A stretch of DNA of 64,000 nt from Escherichia coli (GCF_050320075.1 NZ_CP190018.1); one strand, 5' to 3'; shown: positions 6,714 through 59,920, counted from the first letter of the stretch. Notes: a model not told the origin generated them from the letters alone. Numbers and translations: made by a program.

Positions 6714-7748
6714 TCAGCCGTTGTCAGTGTCCAGTGAGTAGTTTTTAAAGCGGATGACCTCCTGACCGAGCCAGCCGTTTATTTCCCGAATCCTGTCCTG
6801 TAACGGGATAAGCTCATTGCGGACAAAGACCTTTGCCACTTTCTCAATATCGCCCAGTGACCCGACGTTCTCCGGCTTGCCGCCCATCAACTGAAAGGGG
6901 ATGCGGTGCGCGTCCAGCAGGTCAGCGGCGCTGGCTTTTTTGATATTAAAAAAATCGTCCTTCGTTGCCACTTCACTGAGCGGGATAATTTTAATGCCGT
7001 CGGCTTTCCCCTGTGGGGCATAGAGAAACAGATTTTTAAAGTTATTGCGGCCTTTCGACTTCACCATGTTTTCGCGAAGCATTTCGATATCGTTGCGATC
7101 CTGCACGGCATCGGTGACGTACATGATGTATCCGGCATGCGCGCCGTTTTCGTAATACTTGCGGCGGAACAGCGTGGCCGACTCATTCAGCCAGGCAGAG
7201 TTAAGGGCGCTGAGATATTCCGGCAGGCCGTACAGCTCCTGATTAATATCCGGCTCCAGCAGGTGAAACACGGAGCCGGGCGCGAAAGGTGTCGGCTCGT
7301 TGAAGGACGGCACCCACCAGTAAACATCCTCCTCAACACCACGGCGGGTATATTTTGCCGGTGAGGTTTCCAGTCTGATGACCTTACCGGTGGTGCTGTA
7401 GCGCTTTTCCAGAAACGCATTACCGAACACCAGAAAATCCAGCACAAAGCGGCTGAAATCCTGCTGGGAAAGCCACGGGTGCGGAATAAACGTTGAAGCC
7501 AGAATATTACGTTTGACGTAAATCGGTGAGCTGTGATGTACGGCAGCACGCAGGCTTTTTGCCAGACCGGTAAAGCTGACCGGTGGCTCATACCATCTGC
7601 CGTTACTGATGCACTCGACGTAATCCAGAATGTCACGGCGGTCGAGTACCGGCACCGGCTCACCAAAGGTGAATGCCTCCATTTTCGGGGCGCTGGCGGT
7701 CATTGTTTTTGCCGCAGGTTGCGGTGTTTTCCCTTTTTTCTTGCTCAT
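6714..7748 (-). CDS. Q: Portal protein (P2 gpQ-like)
   Basis: 344 aa, same length and position as P2 Q; start overlaps stop of terminase gene by 1 nt. Confidence 0.9.
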   Translation of the reverse strand: MSKKKGKTPQPAAKTMTASAPKMEAFTFGEPVPVLDRRDILDYVECISNGRWYEPPVSFTGLAKSLRAAVHHSSPIYVKRNILASTFIPHPWLSQQDFSRFVLDFLVFGNAFLEKRYSTTGKVIRLETSPAKYTRRGVEEDVYWWVPSFNEPTPFAPGSVFHLLEPDINQELYGLPEYLSALNSAWLNESATLFRRKYYENGAHAGYIMYVTDAVQDRNDIEMLRENMVKSKGRNNFKNLFLYAPQGKADGIKIIPLSEVATKDDFFNIKKASAADLLDAHRIPFQLMGGKPENVGSLGDIEKVAKVFVRNELIPLQDRIREINGWLGQEVIRFKNYSLDTDNG

Positions 7749-50489: not shown

Positions 50490-50580
50490 GTCGCCGGATG
50501 CGGTGCGAGCGCCTTATCCGGCCTGGGGAATGAGCGATTTGTAGGCATGATAAGACGCGTTAGCGTCGCATCAGGCGATG
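50490..50580. repeat. REP/BIME palindromic repeat cluster
   Basis: gccggatgcggtgcgagcgccttatccggcc and gtaggcatgataagacgcgttagcgtcgcatcaggcg read directly. Confidence 0.7.
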
Positions 50581-55563: not shown

Positions 55564-57417
55564 ATGAGACGATTTCTGACGACGCTGATGATACTCCTGG
55601 TCGTGCTGGTGGCCGGGTTATCTGCGTTAGTGTTGCTGGTGAATCCGAATGATTTCCGCGACTATATGGTCAAGCAAGTTGCTGCACGTAGCGGTTATCA
55701 ATTGCAGCTCGACGGGCCACTGCGTTGGCACGTCTGGCCGCAACTTAGTATCCTCTCCGGGCGAATGTCTCTCACCGCCCAGGGCGCGAGCCAGCCACTG
55801 GTTCGCGCAGACAACATGCGTCTGGACGTGGCGCTTTTACCACTGCTGAGTCATCAACTGAGCGTTAAGCAGGTGATGCTAAAAGGGGCAGTGATCCAAC
55901 TGACGCCGCAGACGGAAGCGGTACGCAGTGAAGATGCCCCGGTTGCACCACGCGACAATACCTTGCCGGATCTGTCAGACGATCGCGGATGGTCGTTTGA
56001 TATATCCAGTCTTAAGGTGGCGGACAGCGTGCTGGTGTTCCAGCATGAAGATGACGAGCAGGTGACAATCCGCAATATCCGCCTGCAAATGGAACAAGAT
56101 CCCCAACATCGTGGCTCATTTGAGTTCTCCGGGCGGATTAATCGCGATCAGCGCGATCTCACGATATCCCTTAACGGTACGGTAGATGCTTCTGATTATC
56201 CGCATGATTTAACGGCGGCTATTGAACAAGTTAACTGGCAGTTGCAGGGTGCAGATTTACCAAAACAAGGTATTCAGGGGCAGGGGAGTTTCCAGGCCCA
56301 GTGGCAGGAGTCACATAAACGCCTTTCATTTAACCAAATTAGTTTGACCGCCAATGACAGTACGCTGAGCGGGCAAGCACAGGTCACGCTGACAGAGCAA
56401 CCGGAATGGCAGCTGAGACTGCAATTTCCGCAACTGAATCTTGACAACCTCATCCCGCTTAATGAAACAGCGAACGGTGAAAACGGTACCGCGCAGCAAG
56501 GGCAGAGCCAATCAACGTTGCCGCGCCCGGTCATTTCTTCGCGTATTGATGAACCGGCCTATCAGGGACTGCAAGGCTTTACGGCTGATATTTTGTTGCA
56601 GGCCAGTAACGTGCGCTGGCGCGGAATGAATTTTACAGATGTTGCCACGCAAATGACCAACAAGTCGGGTCTGCTGGAAATTACTCAACTGCAGGGCAAA
56701 CTTAACGGTGGACAGGTTTCACTGCCGGGCACGCTGGACGCGACATCAATAAATCCGCGGATAAACTTCCAGCCACGGCTGGAAAACGTTGAGATTGGTA
56801 CCATTCTGAAGGCGTTTAACTATCCGATTTCGTTGACCGGAAAAATGTCACTGGCTGGTGATTTCTCCGGTGCTGACATAGATGCCGACGCATTCCGCCA
56901 CAACTGGCAAGGACAGGCACATGTCGAAATGACCGACACGCGCATGGAAGGGATGAACTTCCAGCAGATGATTCAGCAAGCGGTAGAACGTAATGGTGGT
57001 GATGTGAAGGCCGCTGAAAACTTCGATAACGTAACGCGTCTTGACCGCTTTACCACCGATTTGACGTTGAAGGATGGCGTCGTGACGTTAAACGACATGC
57101 AAGGTCAATCGCCTGTGCTGGCGCTTACAGGGGAAGGTATGTTGAATCTGGCAGATCAAACCTGCGACACCCAGTTTGATATTCGGGTCGTGGGTGGCTG
57201 GAACGGGGAAAGCAAACTGATTGATTTCCTCAAAGAAACGCCAGTACCGCTGCGGGTTTATGGCAACTGGCAGCAACTCAATTACAGTCTGCAAGTGGAT
57301 CAGTTACTGCGCAAACATCTACAGGACGAAGCGAAACGTCGCCTGAATGACTGGGCCGAGCGGAATAAAGATTCCCGCAATGGCAAAGATGTGAAGAAGT
57401 TGCTGGAGAAGATGTAG
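55564..57417 (+). CDS. asmA: Outer-membrane assembly protein AsmA
   Basis: 617 aa, N-terminal TM anchor, synteny. Confidence 0.9.
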   Translation: MRRFLTTLMILLVVLVAGLSALVLLVNPNDFRDYMVKQVAARSGYQLQLDGPLRWHVWPQLSILSGRMSLTAQGASQPLVRADNMRLDVALLPLLSHQLSVKQVMLKGAVIQLTPQTEAVRSEDAPVAPRDNTLPDLSDDRGWSFDISSLKVADSVLVFQHEDDEQVTIRNIRLQMEQDPQHRGSFEFSGRINRDQRDLTISLNGTVDASDYPHDLTAAIEQVNWQLQGADLPKQGIQGQGSFQAQWQESHKRLSFNQISLTANDSTLSGQAQVTLTEQPEWQLRLQFPQLNLDNLIPLNETANGENGTAQQGQSQSTLPRPVISSRIDEPAYQGLQGFTADILLQASNVRWRGMNFTDVATQMTNKSGLLEITQLQGKLNGGQVSLPGTLDATSINPRINFQPRLENVEIGTILKAFNYPISLTGKMSLAGDFSGADIDADAFRHNWQGQAHVEMTDTRMEGMNFQQMIQQAVERNGGDVKAAENFDNVTRLDRFTTDLTLKDGVVTLNDMQGQSPVLALTGEGMLNLADQTCDTQFDIRVVGGWNGESKLIDFLKETPVPLRVYGNWQQLNYSLQVDQLLRKHLQDEAKRRLNDWAERNKDSRNGKDVKKLLEKM

Positions 57418-57431
57418 GTTACCAGGTGACC

Positions 57432-57478
57432 TGTCCTGTAGGCCTGATAAGACGCGTAAAGCGTCGCATCAGGCGTTC
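57432..57478. repeat. REP element
   Basis: gtaggcctgataagacgcgtaaagcgtcgcatcaggcg read directly. Confidence 0.7.
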
Positions 57479-57868
57479 GTGGCGGCACCATTATATTCTG
57501 AATATGTAAGATCGAAGGCTGTTCCGTTCACTTGATGTTCCTCGTTACTATGGAACGCTCAAGCCGGTGAACGTGCCAGGGTGGCTCAATCGCCACCACC
57601 CTGGCAACCCGGGCTCCCGGCGATAAATCGCCGCTGGCGCGGTTCCCTCATCTTATTCCTTTCGGCTATCGGGTACGGGCGCGAGGTAACATCCCTGTAA
57701 AACGCGCCCTCAGCCCACATCCATGTGGGCTGCCCCGGCCTACAGGAAACGATTCGGCGATTTACAGCCGGACCCACACCCCCGCTGTGATGTCCATGTA
57801 CCACAGACAACGCTTCATTGCTGAAGTTATAAGGCGTTACGCAGCATTGGGTAAAATGGCCGATACCA

Positions 57869-59452
57869 TCACACCTCGTATTCCATCTCGCCATCCTTAT
57901 GCAGCGGAATAATCTGCACCTTCTGCACGCGATGGCTTTCCACCTGCAACGTTTTAAGCAAATAATCCCCCACTTGAACTTCTTCGCCAGGTTTTGGAAT
58001 ACGCTGCAAATATTCCATCAATAGCCCGGCAATGGTGTGATATTCACGTTTTTCATCCAGCGGCAGCGGCACATATTGCACCAGATCCTCCAGCGGCATA
58101 TGACCATTCGCCGTCCAGGAACCGTCCGCATTTTTCTGAATATCATGGCGGGCGTCGATCTCTTCCACTTCGTTCGGTAAGTTACCGGCAATGGTTTCAG
58201 TGACGTCACTTAATGTCACAATCCCTTCCACCGAGCCAAACTCATCCACTACAAAAGCAAAGTGCGTGCGGGCATTACGGAACTGCTCCAGGGCAGGTAA
58301 CAACGGCAAGGTTTCCGGGAACACCAGCGGCTGGCGAATCAACACCCGCAGGTTGAGCGGTTCGCCGCGCAGAGACTGTTGTAGCAGGTCGATAACGTGA
58401 ACAACACCGAGCAAATCTTCTGCGTCATCACCGTCGGTAACCACCACCCGCGTATGCTGATTTCGCTCCAGCAACTGGCGGATTTCTTCTTCCGGCGCGT
58501 TGAGATCGATATGCTCAATATCGTGGCGCGACGTCATAATGCTGCTGACGGTACGCTGATTAAGATTAAGTACCCGCTCAATCATCCGCCGTTCCTGCGG
58601 ATTAAAGATCTGCTGGTTACCATGATCCACCAGCATGGACGCGGTTTCGGCGTCCAGTTCCGCATCTTCTTTTTGCCCGCTAAGCAGGCGCATTACCGCT
58701 TCGGTAGTCCGCTGGCGCAGTGTCTGGTTAGCGGAAAGAAAACGTCGACGGTTAAAGATAGCCAACTGATTGAGCGCCTCGATCATCACCGAGAAACCAA
58801 TGGCAGCGTACAGGTAGCCTTTCGGAATGACGAAGCCGAAACCTTCTGCCACCAGGCTAAAGCCAATCATCAACAGGAAGCTTAAGCAGAGAATAACGAT
58901 GGTCGGGTGACTGTTAACAAATTGCGTTAACGGCTTGCTGGCCATCAACATCAGGCTGATAGCGATAACCACGGCGGCCATCATGACCAGTAAATGGTCG
59001 ACCATCCCGACGGCGGTAATCACCGAGTCGAGTGAGAAGATGGCGTCCAGTACCACAATTTGTGTCACCACCCCCCAGAACTTCGCACCTTTGCGTTGCG
59101 TGGGGTTATTGCTGTCTTTCCCCTCCAGCCGTTCGTTCAGCTCCATCGTGGCTTTGAACAGCAGGAAGAAACCACCAAACAGCATGATTAAGTCGCGGGC
59201 GCTAAAGGTAAACGAGCGAAAGCTGAATAGCGGTTGTGTCAGGGTGACCAGCCAGGAGATTGACGCCAGCAGTAACAGGCGCATTAACATCGCCAGCAGC
59301 AGCCCGGTAACCCGTGCGCGGTCGCGCTGCTTCGGCGGTAGTTTTTCGGCGAGGATGGCAATAAAGACCAGGTTATCAATGCCGAGGACCAGTTCGATCA
59401 CAATCAGCGTGATTAACCCGGCCCAGATAGACGGATCGGCAATCCATTCCAT
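57869..59452 (-). CDS. yegH: Inner-membrane protein YegH (TerC-like membrane domain plus CBS/CorC domains)
   Basis: 527 aa from [13 protein letters not shown]...; synteny. Confidence 0.85.
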
Positions 59453-59920
59453 AGTAAGTACAAAACCTATTCGTTGTATGACAAATGTCACAATTCGATC
59501 ATGGATAAATCAGGGCAAAAATGCAATGTTGCGGCACTATTTATCTCACATTATTTGAGGTTTATAACCTCACATTATCCCTGAATTAAAAGTGGTAATA
59601 ATAAAACATTATTTAAGAAATATCACATGTGGAGACACTATATTAAATATTGTCAACCTAAAGAAACTCCTAAAAACCATATTGAATGACACTTAATATA
59701 ATTCTTAAAAATAGCCAATTACCGAATTGTTACCTTGCCTGCTATTCCGTTAGCTGTAACACTTCCTCCTGCATTATTGGAGAGCCAATATTCAATTACC
59801 ATAATGTCACCTTATATTCGGAAGTTAATTTCCGTAATAACCCTTTCTCATCAACGACTGCATGTTGAGAGGGTTTTAAAAATTAAACTAAATCAGTGTA
59901 TTGGTAGCTAAAAAGCCAGG

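Follow-up and report, generated by a model that had tools for sequence, protein, structure and literature searches.

A fold-conserved intergenic repeat inserted in a REP sequence of Escherichia coli: a diverged member of the TwoAYGGAY class

REPs are palindromes of ~35 bp that occur in hundreds of copies per genome, and MITEs form a general class that includes ERIC/IRU, Correia and RUP. RSA (BEE95) designates old, little-studied enterobacterial intergenic repeats of ~150 bp. The RSA unit is given as 150/151 bp, with six copies in K-12 (PMC5172473). The TwoAYGGAY motif was found in human gut sequences, Clostridia and γ-proteobacteria, its authors judging it a probable RNA with no known role (Weinberg et al. 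2010, PMC2864571), and the Rfam entry (RF01731) describes a probable, non-cis-regulatory RNA. A CsrA-binding role for this motif was proposed in 2014 on motif grounds (PMC4333381). The SELEX consensus of CsrA is RUACARGGAUGU, in which ACA and GGA are invariant and GGA is placed in a hairpin loop; a single CsrA dimer can span two sites separated by 10-63 nt, optimally by >18 nt, and CsrB, which has about as many repeats, binds ~18 CsrA subunits through them (PMC7652899).

In this study we analyzed the gap between the convergent genes asmA and yegH in a 64,000-nt stretch of E. coli DNA (NZ_CP190018.1; the whole stretch is referred to as the window). The gap is 451 bp long (57418-57868) and is unannotated in every matching E. 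coli record. We found that an enterobacterial repeat has inserted into a REP in this gap, that selection has kept the fold of its minus strand, that it is kin to TwoAYGGAY, that its modules form the arms of MITEs in some genera, and that the window copy is a relic devoid of mobile-element ends. The reading we favor, with a probability of roughly one half, combines these features with transcription of the module along with yegH and the presentation of CsrA-type loops on the transcript. The element is a genuine, unannotated and dispensable feature and not a new gene. The coordinates are collected in Table 1.

Table 1. Features of the asmA-yegH gap and its flanking genes (window positions; the module is read on the minus strand and its helices are predicted)
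Feature	Position	Strand	Remarks
asmA	55564-57417	+	617-aa ORF; name from annotation of matching E. coli records
REP	57434-57478		Directly after the asmA stop codon; right arm clipped by the insertion
REP inverted repeat	57442-57455/57461-57474		Sub-threshold hits of Rfam naRNA4 (REP-derived)
Inserted DNA	57475-57862		388 bp; absent from the empty allele, where CTACATGC stands instead (BLAST against GPEC1186)
Conserved repeat module	~57521-57789	-	5'-(A)CAGCG ... GUGAACGGAAC-3'; common to all loci and genera
210-nt core, covariance model R1	57564-57773	-	cmsearch 237.5 bits, E 8e-55
TwoAYGGAY (RF01731) match	57624-57767	-	Model 1-168 (full); 31.5 bits, E 0.015; gathering score 43
GGA hairpin 1	57711-57732	-	RNA CAGCCCACAUGGAUGUGGGCUG, loop AUGGAU; perfect 10-nt inverted repeat CAGCCCACAT/ATGTGGGCTG (57711-57720/57723-57732)
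GGA hairpin 2	57677-57709	-	RNA GGGCGCGUUUUACAGGGAUGUUACCUCGCGCCC, loop AGGGAU; helices 7 and 8
P0/P1 closing stems, 5' strand	57755-57771	-	RNA CCGGCUGUAAAUCGCCG; pairs with 57617-57633
P0/P1 closing stems, 3' strand	57617-57633	-	RNA CGGCGAUUUAUCGCCGG
3' hairpin	57574-57606	-	RNA UGCCAGGGUGGUGGCGAUUGAGCCACCCUGGCA; helix 11, 6 of 9 pairs covary; no U-tract after it
Terminal stem CGUUCAC...GUGAACG	57525-57574	-	Encloses small hairpin GUUCC/GGAAC, 57537-57556
K-12-type deletion	57676-57853		178 bp, between ATCGGGTA and ATTGGGTA; placement ambiguous by 8 bp
yegH	57869-59491	-	540-aa ORF; name from annotation of matching E. coli records

The insertion was delineated by comparison with the empty allele of strain GPEC1186 (L083), in which the 67-bp gap holds only a complete REP (...GCATCAGGCCTAC). 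Since the window has 388 extra bp in place of the short sequence of the empty allele, the insertion clipped the right arm of the REP; no target duplication around 57475-57862 was visible in this comparison. The REP hairpin of the element that the original prediction had noted at 57432-57478 is real (57442-57474), and only this segment behaves as a REP, the module itself giving no REP-like hit. Another REP-like sequence in the window, at 50540-50577, is 92% identical to the REP at 57437-57475. The interval initially singled out as highly structured, 57540-57868, falls mostly within the insertion, but the conserved unit begins ~20 nt further left, and the rightmost part does not belong to it: 57790-57862 is inserted DNA that is unconserved across loci, and 57863-57868 is ordinary sequence by the yegH stop codon. 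The limits of the module were taken from the aligned heads and tails of copies at unrelated loci, where (A)CAGCG begins 16 nt before the core.

As a hotspot, the asmA-yegH gap exists in at least five forms in E. coli (the window and loci L083, L084, L085 and L001), namely the full allele, the K-12-type deletion, the empty site, a pair of genes for a RelE/ParE toxin and an HTH antitoxin, and a hybrid in which a truncated toxin gene abuts the element. The full allele, carried for instance by strain MS8345 (NZ_CP025401, 2222112-2222562), occurs in ~1424-1471 of 5426 genomes (~26%), and the K-12-type allele is the commonest, with ~2770 genomes or about half (estimated as 4191 minus 1424), while the element is missing from this gap in ~23%. 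BLAST against K-12 loci (L001 and L005) revealed that the K-12-type deletion takes out the 5' half of the module along with the two GGA hairpins. Conservation across Escherichia, which had been proposed as a check, is thus patchy at this position, with the genomes that have neither form carrying an empty site or the toxin-antitoxin pair. Because full, half-deleted and empty alleles coexist, any host function at asmA-yegH must be non-essential. This circulation of present, absent and half-deleted alleles is also what would be expected of an inert relic of selfish DNA, whose fold served the mobile element alone, for example by making insertion into terminators tolerable or in its own transposition or regulation, and whose transcript, if any, would be incidental. 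We regard such a relic as the main rival to the explanation that we favor and as a possible, though rather unlikely, account.

The yohP-dusC locus bears on the same question from both sides. The element there (~270 bp) is oppositely oriented in K-12 (L081, 837-1107) and an O25b:H4 strain (L080, 874-1145; see also L050 and L029), and opposite orientations among strains are in keeping with inert DNA. When K-12 and E. whittamii are compared, however, the element is 93.8% identical, as against 92.2% for the flanking gene dusC and 89.5% for mdtQ on the other side, which speaks against an inert relic. An invertible switch was considered for this locus and rejected: the two orientations are 89% identical, compared with 96-98% in the flanks, and the adjoining sequences differ, which indicates that the opposite orientations probably have separate histories.

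Queried on its own, the element (57560-57780) has matches in 5425 of 5426 complete E. coli genomes, at a median of three and a maximum of 10 places per genome, nearly always on the chromosome. Four E. coli loci are occupied, yegH-asmA, proX-MFS (ygaY), aqpZ-lysO and yohP-dusC; K-12 has three loci of the family, one of which is half-deleted. The suggestion of a cluster of repetitive extragenic elements was therefore right as to the repeat but not as to the cluster, the insertion being a single unit of one dispersed family. Scanning species-representative genomes with a 20-base core pattern gave ~58 true copies in Escherichia, Enterobacter, Pluralibacter, Pseudescherichia, Lelliottia, Leclercia, Kluyvera, Trabulsiella, Silvania, Pseudocitrobacter and Citrobacter, together with two probable distant relatives (Thalassotalea and Alishewanella) and ~16 chance hits. 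The family is present in at least 12 enterobacterial genera, Klebsiella included. In CP125156.1 (Klebsiella pneumoniae, 5.37 Mb, filed as a plasmid), 13 places match arm 1 of the element, so that Klebsiella has many copies, none of which was picked up by the exact-core pattern. Carriage by plasmids or phages was rejected. Of 18066 E. coli places, plasmids account for just 5, and the hits filed as "plasmid" are for the most part records of chromosome size or pieces of chromosomes, every one predicted to be non-mobilizable and none with a transposase under a match. A protein-coding reading was likewise discarded: neither the 102-aa nor the 39-aa ORF matches Pfam, and the copies differ by 1-2-nt indels, in agreement with the original view that the stretch has no credible ORF.

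We examined the gene context at the 33 loci where both neighbors could be called, with ORFs of at least 150 aa as gene proxies. Nineteen copies are located between convergent genes, 14 between tandem genes and none between divergent genes, a pattern expected of tolerated insertions and hence of an inert relic. Among the tandem contexts, six copies are in sense and eight in antisense orientation, showing no bias, and the copy at aqpZ-lysO is antisense to both neighbors. Orientation relative to neighbors was dropped as a test of RNA function; it carries no information here, since a copy flanked by convergent genes is downstream of one of the two whichever way it points.

The excess of structure on which the original prediction was based was confirmed by folding. 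The full module (57519-57792, minus strand) has a minimum free energy of -128.9 kcal/mol (z -5.14), and for the 210-nt core the minus strand gives -109.1 kcal/mol (z -5.3) and the plus strand -98.3 kcal/mol (z -4.9), with none of 200 dinucleotide shuffles as stable in either case. Both perfect inverted repeats that had been quoted are present, one of 11 nt (TGCCAGGGTGG/CCACCCTGGCA, 57574-57584/57596-57606) forming the arms of the 3' hairpin and the other GGA hairpin 1, and the two strands of the closing stems constitute a long-range 17-nt inverted repeat that is 88% complementary. The predicted core consists of a rod closed by P0/P1, a three-way junction with the two GGA hairpins, a small hairpin and the 3' hairpin.

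Extreme stability on both strands, in a position between two converging 3' ends and beside a REP, might suggest a barrier or insulator of the REP/BIME kind for the RNA 3' ends of the convergent genes, where the fold itself stops 3'-to-5' exonucleases or read-through and no loop-binding protein is involved. The preference of the family for convergent intergenic regions, and the finding, described below, that intact MITE relatives reside inside terminator hairpins, would fit such a barrier. We nevertheless consider it improbable. The 3' hairpin lacks a U-tract and no terminator was called, the empty allele manages with the REP alone, and stability by itself leaves unexplained both the GGA loops shared with distant TwoAYGGAY RNAs and the asymmetry between the strands.

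Covariation was evaluated with 30 distinct copies and a 66-pair structure taken from the minimum-energy fold of the window copy itself, using as controls the same structure with the 3' partners slid by 1-3 columns. Paired combinations filled 92.2% of the cells, compared with 38-44% in the slid controls, and changes on both sides were seen in 26 of 66 pairs, compared with 5-11. The covariation score was 0.232 (0.03-0.08 in the slid controls), a value reached by none of 500 shuffles, and RNAalifold independently detected compensatory changes in 20 of 51 pairs. Among the individual helices, helix 1 (P0/P1) has 14 pairs, five with both-side changes, and in GGA hairpin 1 six of nine pairs covary, positions 45 and 46 being replaced by tandem G.A in Enterobacter. 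Families 1A and 2 share the conserved tail motif GUGAACGGAAC, in place of which family 1B has a covarying GCGCUCCUU...AAGGAGCGC. Since the pattern by which copies were gathered from other species was exact and included hairpin 2, the invariance of this hairpin among them partly reflects how they were found. The maintenance of the fold through compensatory changes across the barely alignable families 1A, 1B and 2 speaks against an inert relic, as does the intact fold of copies that have lost their terminal repeats.

The mismatch types in paired positions tell the two strands apart. In a model-fitted alignment of 67 near-full copies, G.U/U.G combinations outnumber A.C/C.A by 130 to 32 and G.A/A.G outnumber C.U/U.C by 95 to 34 in paired cells. 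These counts are subject to the non-independence of the cells and to the fitting of the alignment to the model; after three doubtful end pairs were dropped, the ratio of G.U to A.C was 64:23. The excess of G.U over A.C means that the constraint falls on the minus strand of the window, which is co-directional with yegH. This points to a requirement for the minus strand to fold, with a constraint that probably acts on RNA, or at least on single-stranded nucleic acid. We know of no need of an IS4-type DDE transposase for a single-stranded or RNA constraint, and the strand-specific G.U excess is accordingly another point against the inert relic. The idea of an unannotated structured RNA put forward in the original prediction was thus half right, in that the fold is conserved, covaries on one strand and is related to TwoAYGGAY.

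The kinship with TwoAYGGAY was not evident from an Rfam scan at permissive E-values, in which no entry reached its gathering score in the window. Within the element, TwoAYGGAY alone gave a meaningful match, which extends along the full model on the minus strand but scores 31.5 bits; other hits in the window were naRNA4, which is the REP, and mir-2071, which is noise. The aqpZ and proX copies score 30.6 and 28.2 bits, respectively. Covariance model R1, built from copies of family 1 only, provided the connection. At 60-98 bits (E 1e-12 to 1e-21), it recognizes over its whole length (model 1-210) the much more diverged modules of family 2. These occur in Pseudocitrobacter, Kluyvera, Lelliottia, Citrobacter and Pseudescherichia and have identical helices of different sequence (e.g., CCGCGAAGCGG vs GUGCGAAGCAC and GGCGAUUU vs CCGAUUUC). 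Two family-2 modules (L062, 5670-5733; L021, 2218-2281) score 49.2 bits against the TwoAYGGAY model, above the Rfam cut-off of 43. Because modules detected by R1 pass this cut-off, the window element is a diverged homologue of accepted TwoAYGGAY hits, and we assign it on these sequence comparisons to the TwoAYGGAY class as a diverged member, although it misses the formal Rfam threshold.

The features of the element agree with this assignment. Two adjacent terminal hairpins carry loops of the AYGGAY type (AUGGAU and AGGGAU) on covarying stems, and both are closed by a junction stem and by a long outer P1 stem (57617-57633 with 57755-57771); the pattern A-N-GGA-Y is common to both loops. Multiple copies in γ-proteobacteria are also a shared property, the excerpt of the original alignment available to us listing at least five copies from Psychromonas ingrahamii (PMC2864571), and the tandem G.A pairs in the stem of Enterobacter copies resemble those reported for the motif. 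The element differs from the motif in the greater size of the enterobacterial module (~270 nt), to which a further small hairpin, a 3' hairpin and a conserved terminal stem ending in GUGAACGGAAC belong, and in that loop 2 of the window copy, AGGGAU, has G in place of Y; the authors' Psychromonas rows in the same excerpt have AGGGAC in loop 2 (PMC2864571). Another difference is that the Rfam entry gives neither a function nor a link to mobile DNA. Both the motif class and the general class of structured intergenic repeats and MITEs are already known. What appears to be unrecorded in the literature that we searched is the near-universal presence of sub-threshold copies in E. coli, the ~270-nt architecture and the packaging in IS4-type MITEs: a full-text search for the loop sequences returned no papers, and reviews of enterobacterial small repeats contained nothing of the size or type of this element. 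The insertion thus partly corresponds to a known repeat family, the outcome that had been named as refuting the original prediction; yet its structure is under selection and is not mere filler.

The link to mobile DNA came from the family-2 genera, in which one family-1 and one family-2 module are arranged head-to-head, with their 5' ends facing and 40-92 nt apart. In Pseudocitrobacter and Kluyvera, the module pair is bounded by 18-bp terminal inverted repeats TAATGCTGGTCAGTTAAG, giving elements of 591-633 bp. The element at L062 (5273-5905, 633 bp) has perfect 18-bp terminal repeats and a perfect 13-bp direct duplication TCCCTTACGGGGG, that at L075 (6195-6785, 591 bp) has an 11-bp duplication with one mismatch, and that at L021 (1821-2453) has IS4-like 18-bp terminal repeats and no clear duplication. 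At both L062 and L075, the element has gone into a hairpin loop, and a T-run comes after the hairpin. The single IS4 of K-12 has the ends TAATGCCAGTCAGTTAAG and TAATGCCGATCAGTTAAG and a 12-bp flanking duplication, and the terminal repeats of the MITEs are identical to its IRL at 16 of 18 positions. In Lelliottia (L027), an exact IS4 end is located 106 nt beyond the module; IS4-like ends were found at L062, L021, L075, L077, L056 and L027. Judged by their sequences, the Pseudocitrobacter and Kluyvera elements are IS4-type MITEs with TwoAYGGAY modules as arms. Since the arms are inverted, a transcript entering from either side would contain one module in the folding sense. These intact versions in other genera are also in line with an inert relic in E. 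coli. In Enterobacter (L042, L066-L068, L007 and L037), the module is part of a ~480-bp unit bracketed by a 30-bp REP-like inverted repeat CCCTCTCCC...GGGCTGAGGGWTCCCCA, which is a carrier distinct from the IS4 type.

No IS4-like end, with up to five mismatches allowed, was found within 350 nt of the window copy or of any E. coli copy. Candidate decayed remnants of IS4 ends (CAATGCTGCGTAACG at ~57833-57851, and TAATGTCATCAGGTCC beside yohP in K-12) were set aside as too weak to claim. The window copy has neither terminal repeats matching an IS nor an 11-13-bp target duplication of the kind made by IS4, and it looks like an immobile relic that became inserted into the REP. Like MITEs, the family is multi-copy and intergenic, with filled and empty sites and dispersed copies, and is never found between divergent genes. 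It differs from them in that the E. coli copies are single arms, not inverted pairs, without ends or target duplication, and in that the interior is under structural selection, whereas we know of no ordinary MITE whose interior is so constrained. Likewise, the element resembles REPs and BIMEs in being extragenic, palindromic, situated at gene 3' ends and polymorphic among strains, and one REP adjoins it; it differs as a multi-helix unit of ~270 bp with 1-10 copies per genome and no REP sequence similarity. The P0/P1-closed domain of ~155 nt recalls RSA (BEE95), but RSA has six copies in K-12 as compared with three loci here. In this comparison, which was made by length and copy number only, RSA/BEE95 does not fit well as an older name for the family.

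Termination was another function that the original prediction had offered, in the form of a hub serving both convergent genes, and this was not supported. No terminator-like site was detected on either strand in 57350-58000, the structure does not combine a G+C-rich hairpin with a following U-tract, and no sigma-70 promoter consensus was found within the element on either strand; a lone promoter-like match in this region, at 57937-57966 on the plus strand, is inside yegH. With no promoter or terminator of its own, and lying on the same strand 80 nt downstream of the yegH stop codon, the module is most likely part of the yegH 3' UTR and co-transcribed with this gene, as predicted from its placement. 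An independent small-RNA gene with its own promoter, for instance a CsrB-like sponge, is very improbable. The two strong GGA hairpins and the Rfam description of TwoAYGGAY as a probable RNA that is not cis-regulatory would suit such a gene, but the missing promoter and terminator consensus would not, and the sequence 5' of the module is unconserved between loci. Moreover, no ncRNA is annotated under any E. coli match, and two GGA hairpins compare poorly with the ~18 CsrA subunits bound by CsrB (PMC7652899).

The two loops, ACAUGGAUGU and UACAGGGAUGU (RNA CCCACAUGGAUGUGGG and UUUUACAGGGAUGUUACC), have GGA motifs 28 nt apart, within the 10-63 nt that one CsrA dimer can span. Loop 2, UUACAGGGAUGU, agrees with the SELEX consensus at 11 of 12 positions, and loop 1 matches its ACA, GGA and UGU. 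With GGA in the loop, consensus flanks and this spacing, both loops fit the CsrA-binding consensus, and binding is predicted on that ground. The same three properties are shared with CsrB, CsrC and RsmZ, from which the element differs in that it has just two such hairpins, lacks its own promoter and terminator and shows no sequence homology. Several observations weigh against the favored reading. Hairpin 1 has a 9-bp G+C-rich stem and a 4-nt loop in the minimum-energy fold and is stabler than typical SELEX ligands. The window copy is below the Rfam gathering score, and the commonest allele, the K-12 type, has neither GGA hairpin. In the excerpt available of a published K-12 CsrA table, asmA, ybjE (lysO), dusC and ygaY are marked "No" in all four evidence columns, where these genes flank K-12 copies or, for ygaY, the proX site, and the asmA-yegH copy of K-12 is the one without GGA hairpins. 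This table, as far as the excerpt goes, is also compatible with an inert relic.

The mechanism that we propose for the favored reading would run as follows. Transcription of yegH would continue 80 nt past the stop codon into the module, whose RNA would fold into the P0/P1-closed rod and the three-way junction with its two hairpins, followed by the 3' hairpin and the terminal stem. Loops ACAUGGAUGU and UACAGGGAUGU would then present a near-ideal dual site for one CsrA dimer, or for another reader of ANGGA loops, and binding would tether the protein to the transcript or, together with the stable fold, shield its 3' end. We regard CsrA docking as the best single mechanism but place it well under even odds, because the K-12 table is negative, the element is dispensable and one E. 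coli copy is antisense. A broader and decidedly doubtful possibility is that the modules are functional cargo: MITEs of the IS4 type and others would carry orientation-proof pairs of docking RNAs into terminators, and once the ends had decayed, single modules would persist in E. coli 3' UTRs (yegH, proX and dusC) as strain-variable tethers or sponges for CsrA. Should this be true, an RNA motif that has been an orphan for 16 years would gain a vehicle as well as a biochemical role.

For TwoAYGGAY, an orphan since 2010, function can now be tested directly in the best-equipped model organism, given diverged unannotated copies in almost every E. coli, strand-specific selection on the fold, and arms of IS4-type MITEs with clean target duplications in sister genera. 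The natural asmA-yegH alleles (full, loop-deleted, empty and toxin-antitoxin-replaced) constitute a ready comparison set. If the loops bind CsrA, they would add a strain-variable layer to the Csr network; if they do not, the element would still exemplify a structured repeat missed by annotation pipelines and Rfam thresholds.

Two further observations were made in other species. In the copies at L049 (8484-8768, E. whittamii) and L013 (3237-3521, Pseudescherichia), a nested insertion of ~75 nt interrupts the closing stem on its 3' strand; the insert has a CCCCAGGGAUGGGG hairpin of its own and a sub-threshold match to Rfam AaHKsRNA22 (33 bits). At L021, a bacterial small SRP RNA gene (6852-6948, 69.8 bits) is located a few kb from the Pseudocitrobacter element and is unrelated to it.
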